Positions 5,929 to 30,059 of a stretch of 39,803 bases of DNA are shown here, piece by piece. This stretch comes from Escherichia phage HC13. Under the pieces are notes generated by a model. The model was given only the letters and a program-made list of their open reading frames with translations, was not told the origin of the DNA and ran no database searches. Location: sequence record OL362276.1. One strand, written 5' to 3'. Both the position numbers and the translations under genes were made by a program. Every line of letters starts with the position of its first letter. Within the stretch, counting starts at the first letter, position 1.

Positions 5929-6002
5929 CAGACATACAGTTACTGGCCCTGTGGCTGGGAGCACTCGCAGTATTCACTTTAATCCAACGCAGAAGAGGTT
6001 AA
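5925..6002 (+). CDS. Small hydrophobic peptide (25 aa)
   Basis: My own translation: MTDIQLLALWLGALAVFTLIQRRRG. ATG overlaps the upstream stop (ATGA). Very short, speculative. Confidence 0.25.
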   Translation: MTDIQLLALWLGALAVFTLIQRRRG

Positions 6003-6003
6003 C

Positions 6004-6027
6004 CCTAAACTATCACTATAGGATTAG
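6004..6027 (+). promoter_or_regulatory. Phage RNAP promoter (TAAACTATCACTATAGG, +1 about 6021)
   Basis: Promoter-family match. Position equals T7 phi1.1. Confidence 0.75.
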
Positions 6028-6070
6028 ACTCAAGGTCATGACTCAAAGTCGTGGCCTTCATGATTAACCC
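6022..6070 (+). promoter_or_regulatory. Putative RNase III processing hairpin (R1.1-like)
   Basis: Conserved UAGACUCAAGGUCAU ... GUGGCCUUCAUGAUUAA. Upper stem AAGGUCAU pairs with GUGGCCUU; internal loop and lower stem as in the hairpins at 13150 and 36801. Confidence 0.45.
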
Positions 6071-6099
6071 TAAATAAACACTACTGGAGATTTAACCGT

Positions 6100-6279
6100 A
6101 TGTATCAGAACACTATCAACTTCGAGCGCATCCGTGAACGTCAGCAGACTGAAGGTTACATCCCTAAGGGCCGCAAGCTGAACAAGACTAAACGTGGCGG
6201 TGGCATCAAAGGTGCTTTCCGTAATGCTGAAGGTAAAGACTCTCTGGTCAACCAAGAGAAATACTTCGTAGGAGCATAA
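6100..6279 (+). CDS. 1.1: Gene 1.1-like small basic protein (59 aa)
   Basis: My own translation contains KGRKLNKTKR, matching T7 gp1.1 as recalled. Below the ORF-track size cutoff. Confidence 0.6.
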   Translation: MYQNTINFERIRERQQTEGYIPKGRKLNKTKRGGGIKGAFRNAEGKDSLVNQEKYFVGA

Positions 6280-6283
6280 CCAA

Positions 6284-6547
6284 ATGGGCCGACTTTATAG
6301 TGGCAACCTCAACGCTTTCAAATCAGCGTGCAACAGGCTCTATCAGTTAGACTTAGCTGTTATATCTCAGGAGTTTCAAGACCATGTGTCAAGCCAAGAG
6401 TGCATGAAACTCAGGGTGGAGGACCGAGCCGGTAACATCTTCGCGCTTGAGACCTTCGCACACTACGATGAAGACGTGCTGTATAATACCGCAACCGACT
6501 ACCTCAACGGTCTCGCTGACCATCTCGACACATGGAGCAAAGAATAA
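6284..6547 (+). CDS. 1.2: gp1.2, inhibitor of host dGTP triphosphohydrolase
   Basis: MGRLYSGNLNAFKSA...LDLAVI...RVEDRAGN...HYDEDVLYN aligns with T7 gp1.2 (MGRLYSGNLAAFKAA...). Confidence 0.85.
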   Translation: MGRLYSGNLNAFKSACNRLYQLDLAVISQEFQDHVSSQECMKLRVEDRAGNIFALETFAHYDEDVLYNTATDYLNGLADHLDTWSKE

Positions 6548-7593
6548 TGACAACTATCAAAACTAACCCTCACCGCGCTGTAGATTACTCTGAGTCTGGA
6601 ATTAAGAAGGCACTGGAAGCAGCCGGGTCTCTGGAAGCTGAAGTGAAGTACGATGGTGTGCGCCTGAACCTCCTGGTCCTGCGTGAAGGTGAGACCTACT
6701 GGCTTAGCCGCGAGTCGAAACCTCTACCAGCCTTGGAGTGGATGAACTCTGAGTTAGGTAATGCGTGGACCCAAGCTGACTGGCGATGGTTCCTGCGTCA
6801 ATCCGGCTACGAAGGTGTGGGCATGATGATTGATGGCGAGGTCATGGTCAAAGGTGTAGACTTCAACACCTCCTCAGGTCTCATCCGAACGAAGTGGCTC
6901 AAGCCTAACAACGAGGAGTTCGCTGAATACTATTCGCCGGCGACTGGTGGAAAGAAGCTCCCGTTCTGGGGATCCCGGTCACGACTTCAGGTTGTGGTCT
7001 ACGGTGTCATCGACATGACAACCATTGCTGACCCGAAAGCCGAAGGTCCTATCCATAGCGTCACACGCCTGAAGGCCGAAGCTATCGTCCCTCTCCTCCA
7101 GAAATACTTCCCGGAAATCGACTGGGCTCTGTCTGAGTCACACACGGTCTATGACCTTGAGTCGCTCAACTCCCTGTACGAACAGAAGCGTCTGGAAGGA
7201 CACGAGGGTCTGGTAGTCAAGGACCCACTGGGTAAATATAAGCGTGGCAAGAAGTCAGGCATGTGGAAGATGAAGCCTGAGGAGACCATCGACGGGACCG
7301 TGTGTGGTCTCGTGTGGGGGACTCATGGTAAGGCTAACGAGGGCAAGGTCATCGGCTTCGAGGTTCTGCTTGAGGATGGCATGGTGGTTAACGCCTGTGG
7401 TCTGACTGAAGAACAGAAGGCTGAGTTTACGGAAGCCTGTAACACTGATACATATATTCTCGGTGGAATCAATCCATACGAAGGCTGGCAGTGTGAAGTG
7501 CTATTCATGGAGCGGTTCCCTGATGGCTCTCTTCGTCACCCTAGCTTCAAGTGCTGGCGTGGAACGGAAGACAATCCAACCGTTAAGAGCTAA
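6547..7593 (+). CDS. 1.3: ATP-dependent DNA ligase (gene 1.3)
   Basis: Aligns with T7 ligase: catalytic Lys motif EVKYDGVR, EGHEGLVVKDP, KSGMWKMKPE, C-terminal SLRHPSF. I prefer the ATG at 6547 (MTTIKTNP..., matching T7 MMNIKTNP); the track ORF begins at 6532. Confidence 0.93.
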   Translation: MTTIKTNPHRAVDYSESGIKKALEAAGSLEAEVKYDGVRLNLLVLREGETYWLSRESKPLPALEWMNSELGNAWTQADWRWFLRQSGYEGVGMMIDGEVMVKGVDFNTSSGLIRTKWLKPNNEEFAEYYSPATGGKKLPFWGSRSRLQVVVYGVIDMTTIADPKAEGPIHSVTRLKAEAIVPLLQKYFPEIDWALSESHTVYDLESLNSLYEQKRLEGHEGLVVKDPLGKYKRGKKSGMWKMKPEETIDGTVCGLVWGTHGKANEGKVIGFEVLLEDGMVVNACGLTEEQKAEFTEACNTDTYILGGINPYEGWQCEVLFMERFPDGSLRHPSFKCWRGTEDNPTVKS

Positions 7594-7603
7594 CTAAATG
7601 TCA

Positions 7604-7645
7604 ACCCAGTGGTCTTCGCGGACTGCTGGGTTTCTTTGCTTTGTG
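7604..7645 (+). terminator. Early (host RNAP) intrinsic terminator TE
   Basis: ACCCAGUGGUC / GGACUGCUGGGU hairpin (about 11 bp with two G-U pairs) followed by UUUCUUUGCUUUG. Same position as T7 TE, immediately after ligase. Confidence 0.6.
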
Positions 7646-7678
7646 CTAGCAAGCTATCGTCTGGGCCACCAGTTAGAC

Positions 7679-7702
7679 CCTAAGCTATCACTATAGGACA
7701 AC
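7679..7702 (+). promoter_or_regulatory. Phage RNAP promoter (TAAGCTATCACTATAGG, +1 about 7696)
   Basis: Promoter-family match, one mismatch in the upstream part. Confidence 0.7.
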
Positions 7703-7725
7703 CATCAACAACCAAAGGAGACTCT

Positions 7726-7986
7726 ATGTCTAAGAACTTAATGTTCAACCGTTATACCGATACCTTCCACCTGTCTAACAACCCGTTCGCTTGCATTAAG
7801 CGCAACGAGAAGCTGGGATACTTCGGGAAGGCCGTTAAGCTGTCACCTACAGTCTATGCTCTGATTACTCACGGCAAAGCTGAAGAGGCTCGCCAGAAGC
7901 GTGAGACCGACGTACCTGTGGTATACACCAAGTGGCCTCGCGTTCGTCTGTTTATTGAGTTCGTGAAGGAGGTGATCAATGGTTAA
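7726..7986 (+). CDS. Hypothetical protein, positional equivalent of T7 gene 1.6
   Basis: 86 aa, good SD (AAAGGAG). Assignment is by position only. Confidence 0.5.
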   Translation: MSKNLMFNRYTDTFHLSNNPFACIKRNEKLGYFGKAVKLSPTVYALITHGKAEEARQKRETDVPVVYTKWPRVRLFIEFVKEVING

Positions 7987-8422
7987 GGTGGGGGATACAG
8001 TTAACTATGTTGGACCAGTTGGAGCGCACGCGGGACGCTCCTGTGGCAAGGTGATATTGGTCAAGAATGAGCATGTAGCTGTTGTTAAGTGGCCCCGTTT
8101 ATCTGAACCACTCACTCACTCCATTAGTTCCTTAAGTATTACCAAGCAGGCGCAGTCCGAGCCGACAACCATAGGTCAGGAAGATAGCGTCCGTAAGCCA
8201 TCTCACTATCAGGTCTTTGACGGCGTGGAGTCCATTGAGATTATCGCTCGGTCCATGACTGTCAGTGAGTTCCGTGGCTTCTGCATGGGTAACGTCCTTA
8301 AGTATCGACTCCGGGCTGGTAAGAAGTCAGAGCTGGCGACTATGGAGAAGGACCTGAACAAAGCAGCCTTCTATCAGGAGCTGTTCGACCTACATAAAGG
8401 TAAGTGCTATGCTTCCGAGTGA
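7979..8422 (+). CDS. 1.7: gp1.7-like protein (T7 nucleotide kinase homologue, divergent N-terminus)
   Basis: C-terminal 75 aa (KPSHYQVFDGVESIEIIARSMTVSEFRGFCMGNVLKYRLRAGKKSELATMEKDLNKAAFYQELF) aligns with the T7 gp1.7 C-terminus as recalled. The N-terminal half is shorter and unrelated. Confidence 0.7.
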   Translation: MVKVGDTVNYVGPVGAHAGRSCGKVILVKNEHVAVVKWPRLSEPLTHSISSLSITKQAQSEPTTIGQEDSVRKPSHYQVFDGVESIEIIARSMTVSEFRGFCMGNVLKYRLRAGKKSELATMEKDLNKAAFYQELFDLHKGKCYASE

Positions 8423-8504
8423 GTGGTGCGAGCGTAAACTTGAGGAGACAGGTAACGTCGATTACCTTCAGCTCTACAACTTATGGAAGGAGCGTGGTCT
8501 ATGA
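8409..8504 (+). CDS. Small ORF (31 aa), positional gene 1.8
   Basis: My own translation: [31 protein letters not shown]. Overlaps neighbours at both ends. By position only. Confidence 0.3.
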
Positions 8505-8716: not shown

Positions 8717-9409
8717 ATGGCTAAAGAGCAACTGAAGACTTTCACCACTCCGGTAGCTGGTATCGTTGAGCCTTACGCATGGCTGAACAAAGCAGACACC
8801 AAGTTTAATGAACGTGGTGAGCATAAGGTTAACCTGACGTTCGACCTGAGCGACCCGAAGGTCCGTAAGATGATTGATGTCTTACAGAAGATTCACGACG
8901 ATGCGTATGCGAAAGCACTCGCAGACCACGAGAAGAACCCACCTCAGGTTCAGCGTGGCAAGAAGCCTATTGAACCACGTGAAGGCGACATGCCGTGGAT
9001 TGAGAATGGTGACGGTACTGTTACCCTTAAGTTTAAATGCTTTGCGTCTTACCTGAAAGACGGCAAGTCCGAGCCTATCTTATTACGGTTCTACGACACC
9101 GATGCTAAACTCATCCGTGACGTCCCGAATATTAGCGCTGGCTCCAAACTGAAGGTCAAGTTTAAAGTCCTGCCGTTCAAGTGGAACGCTGCGACCGGTG
9201 CAAGCGTTAAGCTCCAGCTTGAGTCCTGCCTTCTTGTAGAACTGAAGGAGTGGAAAGGTGCTGGTGGTGATGGTGGCTGGGGTGATGATGAAGACCTTGG
9301 TACTGGCTACAAAGCGCCAACCGATGGTGACTTCGGGTCTGATGCCTTCGGTGACGATGGTTCCGAAGGTGGTGACGACTCCAGCTCTGGTGGCGATTAC
9401 GACTTCTAA
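8717..9409 (+). CDS. 2.5: Single-stranded DNA-binding protein (gene 2.5)
   Basis: Aligns with T7 gp2.5 (AEPYAWLNK, GKKPIEPREGDMPW, GASVKLQLES, acidic C-terminus ending in F). Confidence 0.93.
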   Translation: MAKEQLKTFTTPVAGIVEPYAWLNKADTKFNERGEHKVNLTFDLSDPKVRKMIDVLQKIHDDAYAKALADHEKNPPQVQRGKKPIEPREGDMPWIENGDGTVTLKFKCFASYLKDGKSEPILLRFYDTDAKLIRDVPNISAGSKLKVKFKVLPFKWNAATGASVKLQLESCLLVELKEWKGAGGDGGWGDDEDLGTGYKAPTDGDFGSDAFGDDGSEGGDDSSSGGDYDF

Positions 9410-9858
9410 TGGCTACAGTGAAAAGCCTTAAGCAGCGACTCATGGTTTCGGGTGACTGCTGGCTTTTTACAGGCTGCGTTAACAACAAGGGCTACGGTCA
9501 GATTAGGCATAATGGGAAAACCATGCTTGCACATCGCGTAGCCTACGAGCTGATTACAGGTGAGGAACCTAACGGTGTTCTACTACACACTTGTGACACT
9601 CCGCTATGTTGTAACCCTGAGCATCTGACTGTAGGAACCCAACGGGACAACCTTCAGGACATGCGTAACAAGGGGCGCGGTGTAAACCCTCCTCATGTTC
9701 CGGGAGAGAAGTGTGGTATGTCTAAACTTACCAACACTAAAGTCAAGGAAATTAGGTCTTCCAGCCTTACCCAGCGACAGCTCGCCACAATCTACGGAGT
9801 GTCTCAGCCGACAATAGGTAAGATACTAAGGAGAGAAACATGGCGACACGTAATATAA
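9409..9858 (+). CDS. HNH family homing endonuclease
   Basis: LAHRVAYEL...HTCDTPLCCNPEHL...QRDN is a classic HNH His-Cys core. C-terminal LTQRQLATIYGVSQPTIGKIL is helix-turn-helix-like. Start overlaps the SSB stop (TAATG). Confidence 0.8.
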   Translation: MATVKSLKQRLMVSGDCWLFTGCVNNKGYGQIRHNGKTMLAHRVAYELITGEEPNGVLLHTCDTPLCCNPEHLTVGTQRDNLQDMRNKGRGVNPPHVPGEKCGMSKLTNTKVKEIRSSSLTQRQLATIYGVSQPTIGKILRRETWRHVI

Positions 9859-10295
9859 GCAGGGGTCACTCGATAGGAATATACCGTTCCGGCCTTGAGG
9901 CCAAGAACCAAGAGTGGCTAGAGAAGAACGGAGTTAAGGCTGAGTACGAAATGTATAACATTAAGTACACAATACCTGAGTCACTCCATAGTTATTGTCC
10001 AGACTTTGTTCTTCCAAATGGAATCATCGTGGAGACCAAGGGAATCTTCGCAGTCGAAGACCGTAAGAAGCACCTTCTGGTACGCGAACAACACCCAGAG
10101 TTAGACATCCGGTTCGTGTTCTCAAGTTCCCGCTCCAAGTTATACAAAGGGTCTCCGACCACGTATGGCGCATGGTGCGAAAAGAACGGATTTAAGTATG
10201 CCGATAAGTTCATCCCGGTTGAGTGGCTGCGAGAGGCGACTGTACGTCTTCCCTCAGGTATCCTCATCCCCAAGAAGAAAGGAGTTAAGTTATGA
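9840..10295 (+). CDS. 3: Endonuclease I, Holliday-junction resolvase (gene 3)
   Basis: Aligns with T7 endo I (FRSGLE, PDFVLPNGIIVETKG, DRKKHLLVREQHPELDIRFVFSSSRSKLYKGSPT). Confidence 0.92.
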   Translation: MATRNISRGHSIGIYRSGLEAKNQEWLEKNGVKAEYEMYNIKYTIPESLHSYCPDFVLPNGIIVETKGIFAVEDRKKHLLVREQHPELDIRFVFSSSRSKLYKGSPTTYGAWCEKNGFKYADKFIPVEWLREATVRLPSGILIPKKKGVKL

Positions 10296-10516
10296 CTCAA
10301 GAAGTTAAGGTCGTTCGTAAGCGTCTGACCATTGATAAAATCCCGGTAGGCTATGCGTTTATCGTCCACGGTAAGCCGGGTGAAGTGTACGTGAAGATTA
10401 GTAACTCTCACGTCTTCAACCATAAGTTGCTCCAGATGCACACCACTGATGCTAACCGCTTCCAACGTCATCTGAACCTCGTAGCTGTAGAGCTGGTGGT
10501 GTACGATGGTGAGTAA
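10292..10516 (+). CDS. Hypothetical protein (74 aa)
   Basis: Strong SD AAAGGAG seven nt upstream. Sits between endo I and lysozyme; no motif recognised. Confidence 0.5.
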   Translation: MTQEVKVVRKRLTIDKIPVGYAFIVHGKPGEVYVKISNSHVFNHKLLQMHTTDANRFQRHLNLVAVELVVYDGE

Positions 10517-10988: not shown

Positions 10989-11204
10989 ATGATTAAACTT
11001 ATTGAATTTCTTGGTCGTCTGGTGGTGCGTGGTTATCGTCGTGCTGCGGTACTGGAACGAAAGGTAGAAAAGAAGACTGCTGACGGTGCGGCTGATGCTG
11101 CTGCGCTGGCTGACAAGCTGACCATCGCGTCACTGGAAGCTGGAATGAAGGCACGCCAAGCTGACACCAAAGCTGACCAGTTGGCTCAGTTCTTCAAAGA
11201 CTAA
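10989..11204 (+). CDS. Hypothetical protein (71 aa)
   Basis: Good SD. Hydrophobic/basic N-terminus, Ala-rich, C-terminal FFKD. No function inferred. Confidence 0.5.
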   Translation: MIKLIEFLGRLVVRGYRRAAVLERKVEKKTADGAADAAALADKLTIASLEAGMKARQADTKADQLAQFFKD

Positions 11205-11269: not shown

Positions 11270-12973
<1,704 letters not shown>

Positions 12974-12984
12974 GGAGGAGTACA

Positions 12985-13149
12985 TTGCTAAGAAAACTTA
13001 AAGCTCGCTACCATCGGTTCATGTACAAATGGTGGAGCGATGAAGCAACCTGCCTGTCTAACATTCTGGGAGACCAGCGGTTCAACTCTGAGGCATGGAA
13101 GAAAGCTAACCGGAAGTTCATGTATCACTTCTTGCGTACAGACTTCTAG
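12985..13149 (+). CDS. Small basic hypothetical protein (54 aa from TTG)
   Basis: Frame of track ORF 12952..13149. I prefer the TTG at 12985, which has SD AAGGAGGAG four nt upstream. Start codon uncertain. Confidence 0.35.
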
Positions 13150-13195
13150 GTCTAGACTCAAGGTCATTCACAGCGAGTGGCCTTTATGATTAGAC
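13150..13195 (+). promoter_or_regulatory. Putative RNase III processing hairpin (R4.7-like)
   Basis: Lower stem GUCUAG pairs with UUAGAC, internal loop, upper stem AAGGUCAU pairs with GUGGCCUU, 9-nt loop. Same family as 6022 and 36801. Confidence 0.45.
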
Positions 13196-13212
13196 TAAAG
13201 CGGAGGATTAAC

Positions 13213-13644
13213 ATGAGGACTTGCAGTAGATGTGGCTCCACAAAGGAGTCAACTGAGTTCAGGAAGATAAATGGGTGGTGCATATCCTGTGTTCGTGAGG
13301 ATAATAGGCTGCGATACCACCGAAACAAAGGTACAGATGCTGGTGAGGCGCATCGCCTATCTGCCCGTAAGTCTTGGCTTAAGAAAGCCTATGGTCTCAC
13401 ACTTGAGGAATATGACACTATGTTCGATAGTCAAAAGGGCAGATGCGCTATATGCTCAGACATTATCTTCAAGCATGGGTCTATTGAGAGTAAGAATAAT
13501 GTAGCCCACGTTGACCATTGCCATGACTCAGGTATTGTTAGGGGATTGCTATGTGGTACATGTAATAGCGCACTTGGTAAGTTCGGTGACAAGGTAGCCG
13601 TGCTTAGGGCTGCTATAGCGTACTTGGAGAAATATAATGTTTAA
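13213..13644 (+). CDS. HNH homing endonuclease, endonuclease VII-like His-Me finger
   Basis: GRCAICSD...VAHVDHCHDSGIVRGLLCGTCNSALG is the endonuclease-VII-type signature. N-terminal CSRCG...CISC zinc ribbon. SD GGAGGA before the ATG at 13213 (the track ORF starts upstream at 13177). AT-rich, with rare AGA/AGG/ATA codons. Confidence 0.8.
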   Translation: MRTCSRCGSTKESTEFRKINGWCISCVREDNRLRYHRNKGTDAGEAHRLSARKSWLKKAYGLTLEEYDTMFDSQKGRCAICSDIIFKHGSIESKNNVAHVDHCHDSGIVRGLLCGTCNSALGKFGDKVAVLRAAIAYLEKYNV

Positions 13645-15808
13645 TCTCAACTCATTCTATGGCACAGATATAGAGACTGACGGTCTACTAGACACTGTGT
13701 CACAGTTCCATTGTGGTGTTATCATTAACGCCGGAACTCAGGCTACTGAGAAATATGGTGTTGCCCCTATGACTGGGCTGACAGGTGGATTCAAAGAGTA
13801 CATAGACCGCATAGAATCTATTATGGCATCCACTGACGGTATGCTGGTTCTGCACAATGGTGTGAACTATGATATACCAGCCTTGAAAATACTGAAGAAG
13901 AAATACTTTGGTAAGAACCTAAATGTGAATAAGGGTCGAATTATTGATACCTTGGTGCTGGGACGCTTGATGTATCCAAACATTAAGTTCTCAGACATGG
14001 GCGCGGTGAAAGCTGGTCGTCTGCCTCCTAAGATGATGGGACGCCAGTCTCTTGAGGCTTGGGGTTATCGTCTCGGTGAGATGAAGGGTGAGTACAAACA
14101 CGATTACGTTGCCAAGTGCAAGGCAGAAGGTATCGAATATAAGGCTGGGGACGAATGGTTGTTCCCATCTCAGGAGATGCTGGACTATAACGTTCAAGAC
14201 GTTGTGGTCACACTGGCGTTGTTCAAGAAGTTCCTGACTGACAAGTATTACTTCCAGTCTGAACAGTTCGCTTTCGAACAGATTTATGCGTTGCGTCTGG
14301 AACATGATGCTGCGTGGACCTGTGCGAAGATGGAGCGTAACGGCTATCCGATGAACACCGAGATGGTCGAAGGCTTATATCGTGAACTCACTGTCAAACG
14401 TGCTGAGTTGCTGGACAAGCTGCGTTCGACTTTCGGCAGCTGGTACGCACCAAAGGGAGGCAAGGAGTTCTTCAAGCACCCACGGACAGGCAAGGACCTC
14501 CCGAAGTATCCGCGAGTCGTGTACCCTAAGGTCGGGTCAGTATTCAAGAAGCCGAAGAACAAAGCTCAACGCTTAGGTCTGGAACCTTGCGAGTTCGACT
14601 CACGAGACACGATGAAGGGAGCACCGTTCACACCTATCACTTACGTTGAGTTTAATCCGGGAAGCGGAGACCACTTAGCGAAAGTCCTGATGGAGCGTGG
14701 CTGGGAGCCTGTGGACTTCACTGACACCGGGAAACCTGTAGTCGATGACGAGACGTTAGAACACGTTAAGTTACCAGACGCAGAGGCTCAGGCTTGCGTA
14801 GAGCTGGTCCGTGAGTATCTGGTAGTCCAGAAGAGAATCGGGCAGGCTGCTGAAGGTAAGAACGCTTGGTTGAAACTTGTAGGTCCAGACGGACGTATGC
14901 ACGGTTCAATCAACCCATGTGGTGCAGTAACCGGACGTGCGACTCATAGTTCACCAAACATGGCTCAGGTCCCGGCTAACGGTGCTCCATACGGTGAGAC
15001 TTGCCGTGGTGCTTTCGGTGCAGCGTGGAACAAGAAGGACGGTAAGCCAGACCCTTGGATTCAAGTAGGTGTGGATGCCTCAGGTCTTGAGCTTCGTTGT
15101 CTTGGGAACAGAGCGGCTCCGTTTGATGGTGGTGCCTATGCGAAGACTGTGGTCGAAGGTGACATCCACTGGGCCAACGCAGTAAACGCTGGGTTAGCAC
15201 CTAACGTCCAACGCGATAAGTCTAACCACGACCATGAGGCTTTCCGTAACAACGCTAAGACGTTCATCTACGCGTTCCTGTATGGTGCAGGGGCCGCTAA
15301 GATTGGACTGATAGTAGGCGGTGGTAAGAAGGAAGGTTCAGCGCTCATGAAGAAATTCATTGAGGGTACACCAGCTATCAAGGACCTCAGGGAAGCTGTG
15401 CAGAACACGCTCATCTCTGAGTCCAAATGGGTAGACGGTGAGAACATCGTGAAGTGGAAACGCCGCTGGCTGAAAGGTCTGGACGGTCGACGCATCCACA
15501 TCCGGTCGCCACACTCAGCACTGAACGCCTTACTTCAGGGTGATGGTGCGGTAGTCTGTAAGCACTGGATTGTTGAGACTGAACGTATGCTTGAAGCCGA
15601 AGGATATGTCCACGGCTGGGATGGAGACTTTGCGTACATGGCATGGGTGCACGATGAGCTACAAATTGCCTGTAAAAACAAGGACTTAGCAGAACGCGTA
15701 GTAGAAATTGCTCAACTTGCTATGCGTAAGGTTGGTGAGTTCTATAACTTTAAATGTGTGTTAGACACGGAGGGTAAAATTGGACCAACGTGGAAAGAAT
15801 GCCATTGA
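13637..15808 (+). CDS. 5: DNA polymerase (gene 5, family A)
   Basis: Collinear with T7 gp5 (exo motif DIETDG, FHCGVI, EAWGYRLGEMKGEYK, YNVQDVVVT, GAVTGRATH, NAKTFIYAFLYGAG, YMAWVHDE, C-terminal WKECH). Start overlaps the HNH stop by 8 nt. Confidence 0.97.
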   Translation: MFNLNSFYGTDIETDGLLDTVSQFHCGVIINAGTQATEKYGVAPMTGLTGGFKEYIDRIESIMASTDGMLVLHNGVNYDIPALKILKKKYFGKNLNVNKGRIIDTLVLGRLMYPNIKFSDMGAVKAGRLPPKMMGRQSLEAWGYRLGEMKGEYKHDYVAKCKAEGIEYKAGDEWLFPSQEMLDYNVQDVVVTLALFKKFLTDKYYFQSEQFAFEQIYALRLEHDAAWTCAKMERNGYPMNTEMVEGLYRELTVKRAELLDKLRSTFGSWYAPKGGKEFFKHPRTGKDLPKYPRVVYPKVGSVFKKPKNKAQRLGLEPCEFDSRDTMKGAPFTPITYVEFNPGSGDHLAKVLMERGWEPVDFTDTGKPVVDDETLEHVKLPDAEAQACVELVREYLVVQKRIGQAAEGKNAWLKLVGPDGRMHGSINPCGAVTGRATHSSPNMAQVPANGAPYGETCRGAFGAAWNKKDGKPDPWIQVGVDASGLELRCLGNRAAPFDGGAYAKTVVEGDIHWANAVNAGLAPNVQRDKSNHDHEAFRNNAKTFIYAFLYGAGAAKIGLIVGGGKKEGSALMKKFIEGTPAIKDLREAVQNTLISESKWVDGENIVKWKRRWLKGLDGRRIHIRSPHSALNALLQGDGAVVCKHWIVETERMLEAEGYVHGWDGDFAYMAWVHDELQIACKNKDLAERVVEIAQLAMRKVGEFYNFKCVLDTEGKIGPTWKECH

Positions 15809-16196
15809 CGGAAAGTCCCTGCATTATACAGGTGCTGCGAGCGAGTTGTATGCGAGCTACCGACTGACGGCTATGGGACACCAAGTCTTCCTACCTGCGT
15901 TCACCCAGTCCAAAGCGGACTTAGTGGTGGATATCAACGGGACCCTTATGAGGGTTCAGGTGAAAACTGGGACCAAGCTGAAGAACTGTAATAGCATTCA
16001 GGTCCGGCTTGGTGGGTGCGGTAAGCCAACTTACAGTCCTGGAGACATCGACCTACTAGCGGTTGTCTATCAGGATTTGCTCTGGCTTATACCGTTCACT
16101 GAAGAGGTTAGAGTCAAGACCTCTATGTGTATAAACTTAACGTCTGACAAGAAGTACGGACAATTTAAACAGGAGAAGACTAATGGCTATTACTAA
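15780..16196 (+). CDS. Hypothetical protein, possible PD-(D/E)xK-like nuclease fold
   Basis: TTG start with SD GGAGGG five nt upstream. Pattern E(22)...ADLVVD...RVQVK resembles restriction-endonuclease-like / Hjc-type cores, with Q in place of the usual acidic residue. Weak inference. Confidence 0.4.
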   Translation: MDQRGKNAIDGKSLHYTGAASELYASYRLTAMGHQVFLPAFTQSKADLVVDINGTLMRVQVKTGTKLKNCNSIQVRLGGCGKPTYSPGDIDLLAVVYQDLLWLIPFTEEVRVKTSMCINLTSDKKYGQFKQEKTNGYY

Positions 16197-16467
16197 ACGT
16201 ATTCGTGTGAGTTTTGATCTGAAGATGGTTGTTAACTCAAAGGAAGAAGATACCATGTGTCGCCAACTGGCTGAGATGACTAAAGCCTACGCTGAGGGTG
16301 AGGAGCTGGATGGTCTTCAGTTGGCTATGGTAAAAACCGCAATCGAGTCAGGCCCTGAGTCTGCCCTTGAAATTGCCCTCAAGAAGACCATCAAGGAGGA
16401 GCTGGTAGACGACTTTGGTTATGGCCAGTTCGGAGTATCTAACCTGCGATTCGAGGTCAAGCAATGA
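16183..16467 (+). CDS. 5.5: gp5.5-like protein
   Basis: N-terminus MAITKRIRVSFDL resembles T7 gp5.5 (MAMTKKFKVSFDV, recollection). Position between gene 5 and 5.7. Confidence 0.55.
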   Translation: MAITKRIRVSFDLKMVVNSKEEDTMCRQLAEMTKAYAEGEELDGLQLAMVKTAIESGPESALEIALKKTIKEELVDDFGYGQFGVSNLRFEVKQ

Positions 16468-23890: not shown

Positions 23891-26248
23891 ATGCCGCTTA
23901 TTACGCAAAGCATAAAAAATCTTAAGGGTGGCATTAGCCAACAGCCTGACATCCTGAGGTTCTCAGACCAAGGCGAGGCCCAAGTTAACTGCTGGTCATC
24001 CGAGAGTGATGGCCTCCAGAAGCGTCCACCTACAGTCTTCAAGCGACGTCTTAACATCGACGTTGGGAGCAACCCTAAGTTCCACCTGATTAACCGTGAT
24101 GAGCAGGAGCAGTATTACATCGTGTTCAACGGGTCCAACATTCAGGTAGTCGACTTGAGCGGTAATCAATACTCAGTTTCCGGTGAGGTAGACTACGTTA
24201 AGTCGTCCAACCCGCGAGATGACATCCGTGTCGTTACTGTTGCAGACTATACGTTCGTCGTTAACCGTAAGGTTGTCGTTAAAGGTGGAAGCGAGAAGTC
24301 ACACTCTGGTTATAATCGTAAAGCTCGTGCTTTAATTAACCTGCGTGGTGGACAGTATGGTCGCACCCTTAAGGTAGGAATCAACGGAGGAGTTAAGGTT
24401 TCGCATAAGTTGCCAGCAGGTAATGATGCCGAGAATGACCCACCTAAGGTGGACGCTCAAGCCATCGGTGCAGCTCTGAGAGACCTTCTTGTTGCTGCTT
24501 ACCCTACCTTCACGTTCGACATTGGGTCTGGATTCCTGTTAATCACTGCCCCTTCAGGGACTGACATTAACTCAGTGGAGACGGAGGATGGCTATGCTAA
24601 CCAGCTAATCAGCCCAGTACTCGACACGGTGCAAACAATCTCTAAGTTGCCTCTTGCAGCTCCAAATGGGTACATCATTAAGATTCAAGGTGAGACCAAC
24701 AGTAGCGCCGATGAATATTACGTGATGTATGACTCCAACACTAAGACGTGGAAGGAGACAGTAGAGCCGGGAGTGGTCACTGGGTTCGATAACACCACAA
24801 TGCCTCATGCTCTGGTGAGACAATCTGACGGCTCCTTTGAGTTCAAGACTCTGGACTGGTCTAATCGTGGTGCTGGTAATGATGACACAAACCCTATGCC
24901 TAGCTTCGTGGATGCTACGATTAACGATGTGTTCTTCTACAGGAATAGGCTGGGGTTCTTGTCAGGCGAGAACGTAATCATGAGCCGTTCAGCCAGCTAC
25001 TTTGCGTTCTTCCCTAAGAGTGTGGCTACACTGAGTGATGATGATCCTATTGACGTAGCTGTAAGTCATCCTAGAATCTCAATCCTTAAGTATGCCGTTC
25101 CGTTTAGCGAGCAGCTACTACTTTGGTCGGATGAGGTGCAGTTCGTGATGACAAGCTCTGGGGTCCTTACCTCGAAGTCTATCCAGCTTGATGTAGGCTC
25201 AGAGTTTGCTTTAGGAGATAATGCCAGACCGTTCGCTGTAGGACGCTCAGTCTTCTTCTCAGCGCCTCGTGGGTCATTCACCAGCATTAAGCGATACTTC
25301 GCTGTAGCAGATGTGTCTGACGTGAAGGATGCTGATGATACCACTGGACACGTACTGTCCTATATCCCTAACGGTGTGTTCGACATTCAGGGGACAGGGA
25401 CTGAGAACTACATCTGCGTCAACTCTACAGGTGCATACAACAGAATCTACATCTACAAGTTCTTGTTTAAGGACGGCGTACAGCTTCAAGCCTCTTGGTC
25501 GCACTGGGAGTTCCCTAAAGCTGATAAGATTCTGGCGTCTGCGTCGATTGGCTCTACCATGTTCATTGTTCGTCAGCATCAAGGCGGAGTGGACCTTGAG
25601 CACCTTAAGTTCATCAAGGAGGCCACTGACTTTCCGTTAGAACCATATAGACTCCACGTTGACTCCAAGGTGTCTATGGTAATACCAATTGGCTCATACA
25701 ACGCTGACGCCTATAAGACTACGGTTGACATTGGTTCTGCTTATGGTGGAAACGCTCCGTCTCCCGGTAGGTACTATCTGATTGACAGTCAGGGTGCCTA
25801 CGTGGACCTTGGTGAATTGACCGACATCTCAACTGTGGCTGTGCTCAATGGCGATTGGTCAGGACGTACAGTGTTCATCGGACGGTCTTACCTGATGTCC
25901 TACAAGTTCTCACGGTTCCTGATTAAGATTGAAGACGAGAGTGGCACTCAGTCTGAAGACACTGGACGCCTACAACTTCGTCGGGCTTGGGTAAACTACA
26001 AGGACACTGGCGCTCTTAGACTCATTGTCAGAAACGGTGAGCGGGAGTTCGTGAACACCTTTAATGGTTACACCCTTGGTCAGCAAACCATAGGGACTAC
26101 CAACATTGGGGATGGTCAGTATCGATTCGCTATGAATGGTAACGCATTAACCACGAGTCTAACCTTAGAGTCAGACTATCCTACCCCAGTGTCCATCGTT
26201 GGGTGTGGCTGGGAGGCGTCATACGCTAAGAAAGCTCGTTCCGTCTAA
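23891..26248 (+). CDS. 12: Tail tubular protein B (gene 12)
   Basis: Aligns with T7 gp12 (ITQSIKNLKGGISQQPDILR, VTVADYTFVVNR, FFYRNRLGFLSGEN, DDDPIDVAVS, LQLRRAWVNY, GCGWE). Confidence 0.96.
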   Translation: MPLITQSIKNLKGGISQQPDILRFSDQGEAQVNCWSSESDGLQKRPPTVFKRRLNIDVGSNPKFHLINRDEQEQYYIVFNGSNIQVVDLSGNQYSVSGEVDYVKSSNPRDDIRVVTVADYTFVVNRKVVVKGGSEKSHSGYNRKARALINLRGGQYGRTLKVGINGGVKVSHKLPAGNDAENDPPKVDAQAIGAALRDLLVAAYPTFTFDIGSGFLLITAPSGTDINSVETEDGYANQLISPVLDTVQTISKLPLAAPNGYIIKIQGETNSSADEYYVMYDSNTKTWKETVEPGVVTGFDNTTMPHALVRQSDGSFEFKTLDWSNRGAGNDDTNPMPSFVDATINDVFFYRNRLGFLSGENVIMSRSASYFAFFPKSVATLSDDDPIDVAVSHPRISILKYAVPFSEQLLLWSDEVQFVMTSSGVLTSKSIQLDVGSEFALGDNARPFAVGRSVFFSAPRGSFTSIKRYFAVADVSDVKDADDTTGHVLSYIPNGVFDIQGTGTENYICVNSTGAYNRIYIYKFLFKDGVQLQASWSHWEFPKADKILASASIGSTMFIVRQHQGGVDLEHLKFIKEATDFPLEPYRLHVDSKVSMVIPIGSYNADAYKTTVDIGSAYGGNAPSPGRYYLIDSQGAYVDLGELTDISTVAVLNGDWSGRTVFIGRSYLMSYKFSRFLIKIEDESGTQSEDTGRLQLRRAWVNYKDTGALRLIVRNGEREFVNTFNGYTLGQQTIGTTNIGDGQYRFAMNGNALTTSLTLESDYPTPVSIVGCGWEASYAKKARSV

Positions 26249-26272
26249 CTTATTGAAGGGCCTATAGATTTA

Positions 26273-26296
26273 CCTTAACTATCACTATAGGGACTA
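26273..26296 (+). promoter_or_regulatory. Phage RNAP promoter (TTAACTATCACTATAGGGA, +1 about 26290)
   Basis: Promoter-family match. Position equals T7 phi13. Flanked by the inverted repeat GGGCCTATAG / CTATAGGCCC. Confidence 0.8.
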
Positions 26297-26324
26297 TAGG
26301 CCCTTAAGGTCATAAGGAGACTTT

Positions 26325-26786
26325 ATGTATATTCGCAAGGCTACGGATGTAGACGTTTGGTACGCTGCTGCACAACTTACAGATGACGACTTAGAGGAGT
26401 GTAAAGCCAACTATGGGACCACTGAAGGTCTCACTGAAAGGCTGCAAGCACACCTAACGTCTACATCTGTTGTTTTGACTAACGCTCTTGGAGAGATTTA
26501 CGCCTATGGTGGCAACCAAGGTGACAACGTTTGGTTCCTGACTACCAGAATGACCGAGCGTCTCCCGCCTAAAGGTAAGCGAGAGTTCCGTGAGAGAATC
26601 ATGGAGTATCGTGACAAGATGCTGGAGGACTATCCGGTACTATGGAACTACGTCTGGGAAGGCAATACGTCTCATATCCGGTTTCTCAAGTCAATAGGAG
26701 CTAAGTTCCACGACGATAAGTGGACCAGAAGTCCAGTGACTGGAGAAGTATTTATTCTATTCACAATCACTAAGGAGGACACGTGA
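26325..26786 (+). CDS. Internal virion protein gp13-like
   Basis: 153 aa, good SD. Positional equivalent of T7 gene 13; no sequence recollection to confirm. Confidence 0.55.
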
Positions 26787-27169
26787 CTAAGGTCTGTACC
26801 GTCTGTAAAATTGAAAAGCCACTAGAAGCGTTCTCCCCACGGAAAGACTCTAAGTGTGGTGTACGCTCTGCCTGTAAGCTGTGTCATAATGGACGAAGCC
26901 ACAAGAACAAGGGATACGAGAAGTATCACATTACGCAGATAGAATATGATTCCATCCTAAAAGAGCAGGGCGGGGTCTGCGCAATCTGCAAGACATTAGG
27001 AACTAGCCGAGGATTATGCGTTGACCACTGTCACACCTCCGGGAAAGTCCGAGGAATCCTATGTCATACCTGCAACCTAAAGCTGACCCGTAGAAACTAC
27101 CACTCTACATGCGAAGATTTCGATGGTAAGGCTGCTGAGTATCTGGCTACAAGCCGGAAGGGGGATTAG
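26783..27169 (+). CDS. HNH homing endonuclease, endonuclease VII-like (second copy)
   Basis: GGVCAICKT...[24 protein letters not shown] is the same His-Me finger signature as ORF 13213..13644. N-terminal CTVC...CKLC zinc ribbon. ATGA-overlaps the gene 13 stop. Confidence 0.8.
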
Positions 27170-27205
27170 GAAATTTGCGAACCAATTTCAATCGGTCTAG
27201 GAATC

Positions 27206-27760
27206 ATGTCTGTAGCAGGGGCCACTATGTCCGCATCCCAACAGGCCAAGGCCGAAGGTGCGGCAATTGACGCTCAGAACCGTCAGGCTCAGGAGATGGT
27301 TAAGCAGATGAACTACTCTGACGCCAACCTGAGGATGCAGGAGCGCGACCTGAAGGAGCAGCAGATGGCTGAACTGACAGAGACCACGCTCAACGGTATC
27401 CGCAATCAGGGTATGGTCCGAGCTGCGGTGGCTGAGTCCGGTCTGGAAGGTAACTCTATGGACAGGATTGAACGTCAGGTAGCAGGAGATACAGTCAAGG
27501 AGCGAGCAGGGATTACCGAAAGTTACAACCGCGACTATGCGGCTATCTTCGGGAACCGTATCGCCAACATTGAGAACACCAAGTCTGCTATCCACGGTCA
27601 AGGTAAAATCATCAAGACCAGCCCACTGGCTCATGCACTTAATGTGGCAAGCGCCGGGATGCAGGGGTACGCTGCTGGTAAGTCAATCTCTGGGGCATCA
27701 AGCTCTGGTGGTGCTGCACCGATTAGTGCTGCTAAAGGTACACCTACAGGTCATAGCTAA
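27206..27760 (+). CDS. 14: Internal virion protein A (gene 14)
   Basis: Aligns with T7 gp14 as recalled (GNSMDRIERQ..., ESYNRDYAAIFG, Gly/Ala/Ser-rich C-terminus). Confidence 0.8.
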   Translation: MSVAGATMSASQQAKAEGAAIDAQNRQAQEMVKQMNYSDANLRMQERDLKEQQMAELTETTLNGIRNQGMVRAAVAESGLEGNSMDRIERQVAGDTVKERAGITESYNRDYAAIFGNRIANIENTKSAIHGQGKIIKTSPLAHALNVASAGMQGYAAGKSISGASSSGGAAPISAAKGTPTGHS

Positions 27761-27771
27761 GAGGAGGACTA

Positions 27772-30054
27772 ATGGCTAGTAATATTGAATCAGCTCTGGC
27801 TAATCGGACTATGGGTCGTGGCAGAGCGCCGGGTAAAACTATCGCCGTCAACTATCAAGCAGCCAGCGTTCAGGCTCCAACTGGTGACTCCGGTCTGGCT
27901 CGGGCGTTAACCAACTTCGTTGAGTCTGGGACTGGATTATACAAGCAGTTCAAAGACGAGGAGAAGACACGGGCCGACGAGCGGTCTAACGAGATTATCC
28001 GTAAGCTGACACCTCAACAAAGACGTGAGGCTATCCAGAACGGCACACTGCTGTATCAGGACGACCCTTACGCTATGGAAGCACTTCGAGCCAAGACTGG
28101 ACGTAACGCTGCCTTTGCGGTGGATGACGAGATTAACGTTAAGATTCAGAACGGTGAGTTCCGTACACGTCAGGACATGGAAGAGTATCGCCACCAGCGA
28201 CTTCAGGACGCCGCTAAGTCCTATGCTGAAGAGGCGGGTATTAACCCTACCGATGAGTTCTTCCAGCGCGGGTTCAACGATAACATCACAGACCGCAACA
28301 TCGCTATCTATGGGTCTTTCAATAAGTATTTCAGCAAGCAGTCTGAAGAGACAGCAATGTTGAACACTCGTATTGAGATGAACTCGTTCCTTAACGATGG
28401 CGACCTGATGCGTTCACCTGAGTCTGGCAAGACATTCATGGCCTACCTTCGTGACGGACTGACTACTGCTGCTATCCCCTCGGACCAGCGAGCGCGGGAG
28501 GTCATTACCCAGACGGTCCGTGACGCAATCCAGAAGTCAGGCGGCTCAAACTTCCTACAGCAAGTACGAGGCGAGCGCATCTCCCTTAACGGAGTGGACG
28601 CTACAGTCGAGGAGATTGTAGGACCTGATGTCTTCAACGCTGCTATTGTTGAGGCACAAGGAACTGAGTACAAGCTGGTGGCTAAGTATCAGGAAGACTT
28701 ATCGTTAGGCGTTCAGTCTGCGATTCTTCAGGACGACCCAACCATCGGTCTTGCCCAGATTCAGAAACTCAAGGAGCAGAACAACCTGCTTCAGCCGGGT
28801 GAAGAACTTACGCCTCAGCGTCAGATGCTTATTAATGCCGAAGCCAGCTTACTGGAAGCGGTCAAGCGTAAGTCTGCTGAACAGGCGAAGGAGAACACTA
28901 AGTTAATCCAGACCCAGAACAAGCAACTAGTCATAGACCAAGTGTATCAGCGACGTCTGTCTGGAGACAACGTGTCCACCAACTATGAGGACCTTCCGGT
29001 CTCTGAAGCCACAGGAGAGTTCAAGCGTTCAGACATGAACAACTATGCGTCTGCTAAGCTACAGCAGATTGACCAGATGGACATCCCTGAGGCTGCTAAG
29101 GACGCCCAGAAGGTGGCATTGTTAAGGGCTGACACTAACAACGGTCCGTTCCGTAATGCCTTCCAGACTCTTACTCAGGACGCTGCTGGTGAGTGGCAGG
29201 CTTCGGTCATCCGTGGACAGTACGACCCAGACAAGATGCAACGCTTCGAGTCTCTTCGCCGTGCCTACACTCAGGACCCTTCAAGTTTCGCTGCTCTGTA
29301 TCCTGACCAAGCTCAGTTGTTCTCTACGTTCGACCAGATGGACAAGATGGGTCTGGACCCTCAGACGATGATTGAAGCTGATAAGCAAGCTGCAAGTCAA
29401 AGCCGTGAGATGCGCATGGAGTCAGACAAGGCGTGGCAGGAGTTGAAGAACGACTCTCGGAATAAGGACCTTTCGCGTCTTCCTACGTCTCTGGACTCAA
29501 GTGCTCGTAAGGTCTGGGACTCATGGTACTATCGTACCGGTAACGCTGACGCTGCAACTCAGCAGACTCAACGCTGGCTGAATGAGAACACCTTAACGTT
29601 CCAGTCTGAAGGTTCTGACGGTAAGTCCATCGGCATGGTGTCGAAGCACCAGCTTATGGTCGGGGATAACCCAGAGTCGTGGCAGGTGGGTCGAGACATT
29701 ATCGACACCGCTCGTCAGCAGCTCATTAAGGCCAACCCTTGGGTAGTGAACTCTCAGTTGTCAGTTGTTGAACAGAACGGCTCTATCTTCCTCCAAGACG
29801 CTACAGGGACTATTCGTATTCGCTACGATAAAGAACTTGTAGGTAAACTCTACCGCGAACAACAGCAGAAGGCACAAGATGCCGCATATGCTCAGGCAGA
29901 ACGTGACGCTAACAAGCGAGCGCGTATCGTCGGGACTAAAGCTGCTGGTGACAAACGTCGTGCTGACCGAGAGGCCAACATCGAGAAGCGCGGTGGGATG
30001 TACAATGACGTCTCACTGGAGGGTATCGCAAACACCTTAATCGGTAAGGAGTAA
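27772..30054 (+). CDS. 15: Internal virion protein B (gene 15)
   Basis: 760 aa, position and size equal T7 gp15 (747 aa). Strong SD. Confidence 0.8.
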   Translation: MASNIESALANRTMGRGRAPGKTIAVNYQAASVQAPTGDSGLARALTNFVESGTGLYKQFKDEEKTRADERSNEIIRKLTPQQRREAIQNGTLLYQDDPYAMEALRAKTGRNAAFAVDDEINVKIQNGEFRTRQDMEEYRHQRLQDAAKSYAEEAGINPTDEFFQRGFNDNITDRNIAIYGSFNKYFSKQSEETAMLNTRIEMNSFLNDGDLMRSPESGKTFMAYLRDGLTTAAIPSDQRAREVITQTVRDAIQKSGGSNFLQQVRGERISLNGVDATVEEIVGPDVFNAAIVEAQGTEYKLVAKYQEDLSLGVQSAILQDDPTIGLAQIQKLKEQNNLLQPGEELTPQRQMLINAEASLLEAVKRKSAEQAKENTKLIQTQNKQLVIDQVYQRRLSGDNVSTNYEDLPVSEATGEFKRSDMNNYASAKLQQIDQMDIPEAAKDAQKVALLRADTNNGPFRNAFQTLTQDAAGEWQASVIRGQYDPDKMQRFESLRRAYTQDPSSFAALYPDQAQLFSTFDQMDKMGLDPQTMIEADKQAASQSREMRMESDKAWQELKNDSRNKDLSRLPTSLDSSARKVWDSWYYRTGNADAATQQTQRWLNENTLTFQSEGSDGKSIGMVSKHQLMVGDNPESWQVGRDIIDTARQQLIKANPWVVNSQLSVVEQNGSIFLQDATGTIRIRYDKELVGKLYREQQQKAQDAAYAQAERDANKRARIVGTKAAGDKRRADREANIEKRGGMYNDVSLEGIANTLIGKE

Positions 30055-30059
30055 TAATA

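Follow-up and report, generated by a model that had tools for sequence, protein, structure and literature searches.

A probable free-standing homing endonuclease gene with a co-conversion tract at the start of the DNA polymerase gene of Escherichia phage HC13

The HNH gene, gene 5 and the genomes compared

Escherichia phage HC13 is a T7-like phage of the genus Kayfunavirus. Its genome (sequence record OL362276.1; guanine plus cytosine content, GC, 0.501) was analysed as one stretch of 39,803 nucleotides (nt) that we call the window, and all positions count from its first letter. Directly upstream of the DNA polymerase gene (gene 5, or pol) lies a short gene predicted to encode an HNH endonuclease of the endonuclease VII (Endo VII) type. 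We report here on this gene, on the first 306 nt of pol that are linked to it, and on the proposal that the two are a homing endonuclease gene (HEG) and its co-conversion tract. The features of the locus are the following.

13202..13206, + strand: Shine-Dalgarno sequence GGAGG, 6 nt ahead of the HNH start codon, within what is the pol leader in HNH-less relatives (leader comparison)
13213..13644, + strand: free-standing gene for an Endo VII-type HNH (beta-beta-alpha-Me) endonuclease of 143 amino acids (Pfam, PHROG, AlphaFold, and the ratio of nonsynonymous to synonymous substitution rates, dN/dS)
13222..13290, + strand: N-terminal Cys4 module (C4, C7, C23 and C26, as CxxC...CxxC), the four cysteines kept in at least 90% of 30 homologs
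13444..13566, + strand: catalytic core with zinc ligands C78, C81, C114 and C117 and catalytic residues D101-H102-x-H104 and N118, invariant in the 30 homologs
13626..13629, + strand: GGAG formed by the final HNH codons (...Y-L-E-K-Y-N-V*), 7 nt before the pol start codon, replacing the Shine-Dalgarno sequence lost to the insert
13637..13644, + strand: 8-nt overlap ATGTTTAA, with the pol start codon inside the HNH stop region; the same 8-nt overlap occurs in Aeromonas phage PZL-Ah8
13637..15808, + strand: pol, a family A DNA polymerase of 723 amino acids (PF00476, E=1.4e-36), chimeric, with codons 1-102 of donor type and codons 103-723 of backbone type
13637..13942, + strand: putative co-conversion tract, pol codons 1-102, with the DIETDG and HNGVNYD motifs, of foreign ancestry and linked to the HNH gene (identity, composition, ancestry)
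13943..14026, + strand: interval holding the right-hand recombination crossover, beginning at the IDTLVL-coding block (last divergent base 13942, first recipient-type informative site 14026)

Around the HNH and pol genes the nearest relatives of HC13 are phages 6925 and HC12, and all three come from Houston sewage. We aligned the region with three HNH-less relatives (6925, HC12 and ST0223), two carriers (Zappy and UFJF_EcSW4, or EcSW4) and phage CR44b. We also searched a collection of 50,697 phage records, of which 362 are related to HC13 and HC13 itself is not one.

An Endo VII-type HNH gene under purifying selection

The list of open reading frames (ORFs) begins the HNH frame at a GTG at 13177. 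The likely start is the ATG at 13213 that follows the GGAGG sequence, in agreement with the 432-nt coding sequence annotated identically in relatives. An exact-sequence look-up showed that the product of 13213-13641 is identical to HC13_0024 (URY99506.1). The initial annotation had recognized the signature CAIC...VDHCH...RGLLCGTCN in this frame; the motif is present, and residues 55-140 of 143 match the Pfam family PF02945 (Endonuclease_7, E=2.7e-24), with a further match to the PHROG family phrog_2633 'endonuclease VII' (E=3.9e-35). The HNH core aligns with GKCLIC...HLDHDH...VRGLLCNLCN of T4 Endo VII and with the restriction enzyme Hpy99I, which was the best sequence match among solved structures in the Protein Data Bank. 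T4 Endo VII and Hpy99I were also the top fold matches of the AlphaFold model (predicted local distance difference test score 91.9). The N-terminal Cys4 module is probably a zinc ribbon and a candidate for the DNA-recognition part.

Comparison with close carriers showed that the HNH ORF is under purifying selection (dN/dS 0.18-0.31); against an 82%-identical variant dN was 0.15 and dS was saturated. The gene had also been described as AT-rich and full of rare codons. The codons AGA, AGG and ATA make up 7.7% of the HNH gene and 4.9% of the tract, against 0.6% of the remainder of pol and 1.1% across the long ORFs of the genome, so the rare codons are borne out. Its GC of 0.451 is low, but only at the 7th percentile of same-length genome windows (z=-1.7), a weaker signal than that in the tract.

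We considered and rejected an intron-encoded origin: pol is one continuous 723-amino-acid ORF, the HNH gene lies upstream of the pol ATG, and a search of 12800-16300 against Rfam gave no match at E<=1.

The first 102 codons of pol differ in identity, composition and ancestry

Phages 6925, HC12 and ST0223 lack 13213-13636 entirely, and both flanks of the affected region are 97-100% identical to HC13. Over 13637-13942 these HNH-less relatives share only 61% of nucleotides (187/306) and 63% of amino acids (64-65/102) with HC13. Identity is back to 99-100% from 13943 on, and pol residues 103-723 match those of 6925 at 620 of 621 positions. The initial annotation had expected an identity drop in the first ~120 pol codons relative to such phages, and the drop falls on codons 1-102. 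Of the 113 informative sites in the tract, HC13 has the donor type at 112, and its flanks are recipient-type (6925/HC12-like). The left crossover can be placed no finer than the leader region, where there are few informative sites; the insert begins at the position of the pol ATG.

The composition of pol changes at the same point. The tract has a GC of 0.415 and a GC at third codon positions (GC3) of 0.43, at the 1st percentile of genome windows (z=-2.6), and its compositional anomaly is stronger than that of the HNH gene. The rest of pol returns to backbone-like values, as had been noted (GC 0.516, GC3 0.55). Atypical composition had been claimed for the first 350-400 nt; it is atypical for 306 nt, with a sharp end at 13942. 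Similarly, of the ATA, AGA and TTA codons thought to crowd the start of pol, ATA does make up 4.9% of tract codons, but not one AGA or TTA occurs in frame.

An AT-rich 5' end might be a generic translational feature, such as low structure or a codon ramp, rather than foreign DNA. The GC of the HNH-less allele over the same 306 nt (0.47-0.49) is indeed slightly under that of the rest of pol (0.51). However, the GC3 of this allele (0.56-0.64) is above that of the rest of pol, only 0-1% of its codons are AGA, AGG or ATA, and the two alleles are just 61% identical, with a dN of 0.33 and a change that ends abruptly at 13942. HNH-less relatives are thus not equally AT-rich at the pol 5' end, the outcome that the initial annotation had named as contrary to its proposal. 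We rejected a codon ramp or a compositional artefact on the ground that the signal is missing from the HNH-less allele, and give it almost no credence.

The divergence between the HC13 and resident tract alleles (dN 0.33, dS saturated) exceeds that of the rest of pol between two genera (dN 0.28). Pol residues 1-102 are 76.5% identical to those of Citrobacter phage CR8 (Caroctavirus) and about 63% identical to Kayfunavirus alleles. By contrast, residues 103-375 are 99.6% identical to those of 6925 (Kayfunavirus) and 62% identical to those of CR8. These identities indicate that the tract came from a different Studiervirinae lineage, with CR8 as its nearest known relative. The donor lineage was not found in the phage collection, in IMG/VR (exact 29-mer of the tract) or in metagenomes of the Joint Genome Institute (exact 32-mer). 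A scan of IMG/VR for close HNH relatives gave a single locus at 42% identity. A search of a protein collection with the 102-residue tract returned one irrelevant fragment and missed the known carriers too, and is therefore uninformative on the donor lineage.

The DIETDG and HNGVNYD motifs are conserved in both tract alleles. By alignment with T7 gp5, we take these to be the Exo I and Exo II motifs and the tract to be approximately the N-terminal half of the proofreading domain. Thus, the suggestion that the exonuclease domain at the N-terminus of the polymerase is of different ancestry from the rest of the enzyme holds for only about half of that domain.

The HNH gene and the tract occur together

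The HNH gene was found in 4 of the 50,697 phage records, R1, Zappy, SHAK9454 and UFJF_EcSW4, all of them among the 362 related to HC13. The tract, at an identity of at least 97%, was found in exactly those four records with no exception either way, and its next best match was 71% identical. The HNH gene is therefore an optional gene between conserved genes, sporadic in close relatives, with an empty site in 6925, HC12 and ST0223. Carriers are 97-99.7% identical to HC13 in the tract and 97-99% in the HNH gene although their backbones are only about 93% identical to that of HC13. Nearly identical cassettes on such backbones imply that the cassette moved between backbones, or was lost from one, and is not simply inherited within one clade. 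We rejected an assembly chimera because the same cassette is present in four independent phage genomes; isolation records of the three carriers inspected name Thailand, Brazil and China.

Two members of the cluster of HNH proteins at 90% identity are annotated as Pantoea ananatis (WP_455939285.1), the full-length one on a contig of ~40.7 kb. The likely source is a phage genome that entered the database as part of a bacterial assembly.

These data bear on a second explanation, that the HNH protein is kept mainly for the benefit of the phage, by cutting competitor genomes in co-infection or as an auxiliary junction or mismatch nuclease, with the tract as a by-product. The purifying selection on the ORF would fit this. 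There are precedents in that T4 HEGs cause marker exclusion (PMC2988022) and an intron-encoded endonuclease reportedly gives phage PhiPA3 a competitive advantage (PMC11620839). However, the gene is missing in >98% of close relatives and is therefore dispensable, and HC13 already encodes a T7-type resolvase, endonuclease I, at 9840-10295 (PF05367, E=4.2e-74). The position of the motif also matters. Fang et al. 2018 distinguished a resolvase clade of Endo VII-motif proteins with an N-terminal motif from an endonuclease clade with a C-terminal motif; Hpy99I was placed in the latter, and its podovirus members also encode T7 endonuclease I (PMC6083498). The HC13 motif is C-terminal, as in the endonuclease clade, and not N-terminal as in resolvases. 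A benefit to the phage would in any case add to homing and does not exclude it. We consider this explanation quite improbable. A resolvase role for the HNH protein was rejected on its domain order, its dispensability and the presence of endonuclease I.

The HNH gene uses the ribosome-binding site of pol and returns another

The leader of HC13 reads gattagactaaagcggaggattaac immediately before the HNH ATG. In 6925, HC12 and ST0223 essentially the same leader, with the same GGAGG, reads gattagactaaacggaggattaacc immediately before the pol ATG. R1, Zappy and EcSW4 have a different leader of ~20 nt, and the variant in contigs L008 and L009 (see below) has a third.

At the other end the HNH gene abuts gene 5, as the initial annotation had it, with its stop codon overlapping the pol ATG (13637) by 8 nt; in other homologs the overlap is 1-20 nt. 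This layout fits translational coupling. In 8 of the 8 sequences listed, the pol ATG comes after Y-L-E codons within which GGAG or GAGG is found; the eight are six Endo VII-type homologs (HC13, Zappy, EcSW4, L008, IL33 and PZL-Ah8), contig L010 (AGAGG) and the unrelated HEG of CR44b (GGAGG). Across the 30 homologs Y137 and A134 are invariant and L138 is nearly so. By using the ribosome-binding site of pol, supplying GGAG in its place and overlapping its own stop with the pol ATG, the element appears built to do little harm to pol, and the replacement of the ribosome-binding site would keep the cost to the host phage low.

No phage promoter of the CTATCACTATAGG type is present between 11200 and 17663, and therefore the HNH gene rides on the gene 4-5 transcript. 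Upstream of the 82%-identical HNH variant, at ~60-80 of L008 and at the equivalent place in L009, there is a promoter-like insertion, CTATCACTGTAGGA, to be compared with the core CTATCACTATAGG; it is absent in HC13.

Related and unrelated nuclease genes recur at the pol start

Contigs L008 and L009 from the European Nucleotide Archive carry the 82%-identical HNH gene at the same site on a Kayfunavirus backbone. Their pol 5' tract is their own and is shorter (~215-230 nt): it differs from both of the other alleles to ~13866, beyond which it agrees with the HNH-less allele. In every case examined, homologs at 45-54% identity adjoin the pol start on its upstream side and overlap it (Przondovirus IL33, Aeromonas phage PZL-Ah8, Pifdecavirus PSV6, Berlinvirus RN5i1, Yersinia phage WX1 and Logan contig L010). 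In total 8/8 homolog contexts examined are at the pol start, in about six Studiervirinae genera. More distant paralogs (43%) are located at gene 13.5. When Przondovirus IL33 was compared with PRA33 and K27, the flanks were 96-100% identical and the first ~200 nt of pol 70-78% identical. The slot upstream of pol in Klebsiella phage PRA33 (L016 1505-1891), and likewise in K27PH129C1, holds a 128-amino-acid gene of unknown function.

A different nuclease gene occupies the slot in Citrobacter phage CR44b, where an unrelated '7.7B' HNH homing endonuclease (L006 2214-2615) follows an identical leader. This gene opens with the ATGTTTGA that belongs to pol, and pol itself departs from other HNH-less alleles in its first ~8 codons. 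The pol start seems to be a landing site that different nuclease genes share.

Homing as the probable origin of the cassette

We conclude, with a probability of roughly 75%, that ORF 13213-13644 is a free-standing HEG of the Endo VII-motif (His-Me finger) type accompanied by a co-conversion tract. The initial annotation had likewise seen here the footprint of a homing endonuclease copied together with flanking donor sequence, and the linkage of gene and tract, the sharp boundaries and the foreign ancestry of the tract support it, with the endonuclease activity itself predicted from the protein. Free-standing HEGs of T-even phages act on genomes that lack the nuclease, which they cut in the neighbouring gene and some way off from their own; resection must reach homology on both sides, and all of the stretch from the cut to the nuclease gene is bound to be co-converted (PMC2988022).

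By analogy with intronless homing by the Seg and Mob nucleases of T4, in a mixed infection the HC13 enzyme, a presumed site-specific endonuclease, would cut the pol 5' region of a phage that lacks the HNH gene. The break would be resected to homology, to the left in the gene 4.x-5 leader and to the right in the conserved IDTLVL-coding block, and repair from the carrier genome would copy the HNH gene along with pol codons 1-102. The tract probably renders the carrier's own pol allele uncleavable and would in this way confer immunity. In the HC13 type, in L008/L009 and in IL33 the replaced sequence (about 215-306 nt) is confined to the pol side and almost or wholly missing upstream, which favours a cut site inside pol; we predict it within pol codons ~1-75. 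If the two Kayfunavirus variants share specificity, the site would lie within 13637-13866.

Ordinary homologous recombination might instead have moved the HNH gene and the pol 5' tract as one mosaic block, with the HNH protein inactive or a passenger. HC13 is mosaic relative to 6925 and HC12 (about 96% identity genome-wide, with several further divergent patches), and it is mainly this that keeps such an explanation alive: there are other divergent patches, for example at 6501-7000, 9501-10000 and 26501-27000, and crossovers at the first available homology are expected of any recombination. However, purifying selection acts on the HNH ORF, whose catalytic residues are all intact, its homologs in about six genera hold the same position at the pol start, a divergent pol 5' patch adjoins the gene in all three comparable carrier lineages, and in CR44b an unrelated HEG sits in the same slot with the first pol codons altered. 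We regard recombination without a nuclease as unlikely.

Several points nevertheless weigh against homing. We infer the role of the nuclease in the transfer from the sequence pattern alone, and in a mosaic group, where HC13 has patches with no obvious nuclease gene, ordinary recombination can move such blocks. The direction cannot be read from the sequences, which fit a gain in HC13 as well as a loss from 6925 and HC12 when these recombined with the majority allele. The four carriers in the database could share the cassette partly by descent, and the linkage check leaves out the other ~38 of the 43 members of the 90% HNH protein cluster. The Przondovirus comparison is one of allele with allele rather than of presence with an empty site, given the other gene in the slot, and evidence of independent transfer is limited to HC13, the L008/L009 variant and the Przondovirus case.

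A broader proposal, for which we would put the odds somewhat short of even, is that one Endo VII-type clade has specialised on the gene 5 start across Studiervirinae (Kayfunavirus, Przondovirus, Berlinvirus, Pifdecavirus, and Aeromonas and Yersinia phages). Such a clade would have co-evolved with the translation start of pol, taking its ribosome-binding site and returning one from the conserved Y-L-E codons, and each move between lineages would swap 70-100 codons of the exonuclease domain. If so, an enzyme essential for replication would have its domains shuffled time and again by a selfish gene, and the HNGxxYD and IDTLVL motifs would be the joints that permit it.

The 3' end of pol and other variable regions

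A second nuclease ORF, of the PD-(D/E)XK type, lies at 15780-16196 on the + strand (PF11645, E=3.4e-10; phrog_5018) and overlaps the 3' end of pol by 29 nt. It is sporadic, with only 26 phage records, and is absent in ST0223 and CR44b. Positions 15400-15800 of pol are only 73-78% identical to relatives without the ORF. The linkage of the ORF with the divergent pol 3' sequence is not clean, and the region is variable in many relatives. This ORF probably encodes another free-standing homing endonuclease, accompanied by a tract of its own, so that pol would be flanked by selfish nucleases at both ends. In the Kayfunavirus relatives K1F, CLB_P1 and Ro45lw, and also in PDP21P1 and CHX131, the pol 3' region (compare 15560-15790) is split by ~600 bp annotated as carrying an HNH homing endonuclease. 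The pol 3' matches in those relatives are in 2 pieces spanning 828 nt, and the insert is absent in HC13.

Elsewhere in the window, mosaic or indel patches relative to 6925 and HC12 lie at 1001-1500, 6001-7000, 7501-8500, 9001-10500, 26001-27500 and 30001-31500. HC13 has an endonuclease I allele (9840-10295) and a following 74-amino-acid ORF where 6925 has a pair of 139 and 163 amino acids. Just upstream of gene 4, HC12 has an annotated tRNA pseudogene (11043-11118 of HC12). Its alignment with HC13 is poor over 11000-11200 (24-31 matches per 100 nt), where HC13 and 6925 have a 71-amino-acid ORF.

Significance

Around pol, HC13 is nearly identical to HC12 and 6925 and differs from them by one 730-bp cassette, which makes these phages a ready system for homing, co-conversion and target-site immunity in T7-like phages. 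The main value of the locus lies in this near-isogenic set and in the possible specialisation of a whole clade on the pol start. We know of no Endo VII-motif endonuclease at the pol start with demonstrated activity so far. The proofreading-exonuclease domain of an essential polymerase tolerates the swap of its first 102 residues for a 63%-identical copy, which is useful for understanding and engineering T7-type polymerases. Phylogenies based on pol, and primer sites in Autographiviridae, can mislead at the 5' end of the gene.

Comparison with known systems

The closest parallel by protein family is the 'endonuclease clade' of F-CphI (PMC6083498). As in that clade, the HC13 motif is C-terminal, the zinc and catalytic residues are conserved, the gene stands free beside a conserved gene, and the podovirus also encodes T7 endonuclease I; Hpy99I stands in here for F-CphI as the comparator of the clade. 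Unlike the F-CphI case, there is no intron in HC13 pol, protection presumably comes from the diverged coding tract, and cleavage in HC13 is predicted.

T4 endonuclease VII (gp49) has the same catalytic motif and beta-beta-alpha-Me core. The likeness does not extend over the full length, with only HNH residues 64-127 aligning to gp49 residues 9-71 and a TM-score of about 0.35-0.4. The motif of gp49, the Holliday-junction resolvase of its phage, comes at the N-terminus ahead of a dimerisation domain. The HC13 protein has it at the C-terminus, its gene is optional, and the phage also encodes endonuclease I. The intron-encoded HNH nucleases of T7-like pol genes share the host gene (gene 5) and the broad nuclease superfamily, but lie within a group I intron in pol, whereas the HC13 gene is free-standing and upstream of the start codon. 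Inserts of that kind are seen near the pol 3' end of the Kayfunavirus relatives K1F, CLB_P1 and Ro45lw.

HEG islands (Barth, Dunham & Seed 2023, PMC10448857) resemble the HC13 locus in that a HEG borders a recombination tract within an essential gene for replication and that different HEGs occupy the same slot, as with CR44b, and HC13 pol is likewise flanked by nuclease genes at both ends. Those islands involve T5orf172 and IPA-HNH genes in ICP1 and other phages, not an Endo VII clade at the Studiervirinae pol start.

By process, the nearest systems are SegF, SegG and MobE of T4 (PMC2988022, PMC2790892). There too conserved genes flank an optional one, sequence of the essential gene next door is replaced along with the nuclease gene, and the replaced sequence is only on the side of the presumed target gene. 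They differ in belonging to the GIY-YIG and classical HNH families and to another phage group, and in T4 the cleavage sites and inheritance were measured, whereas in HC13 they are inferred. A literature search found no description of intronless homing with co-conversion at the pol start or for this Endo VII clade. Intronless homing with co-conversion is itself well established, so the HC13 case extends a known mechanism rather than revealing a new one, and we regard it as a clean natural example of that process.

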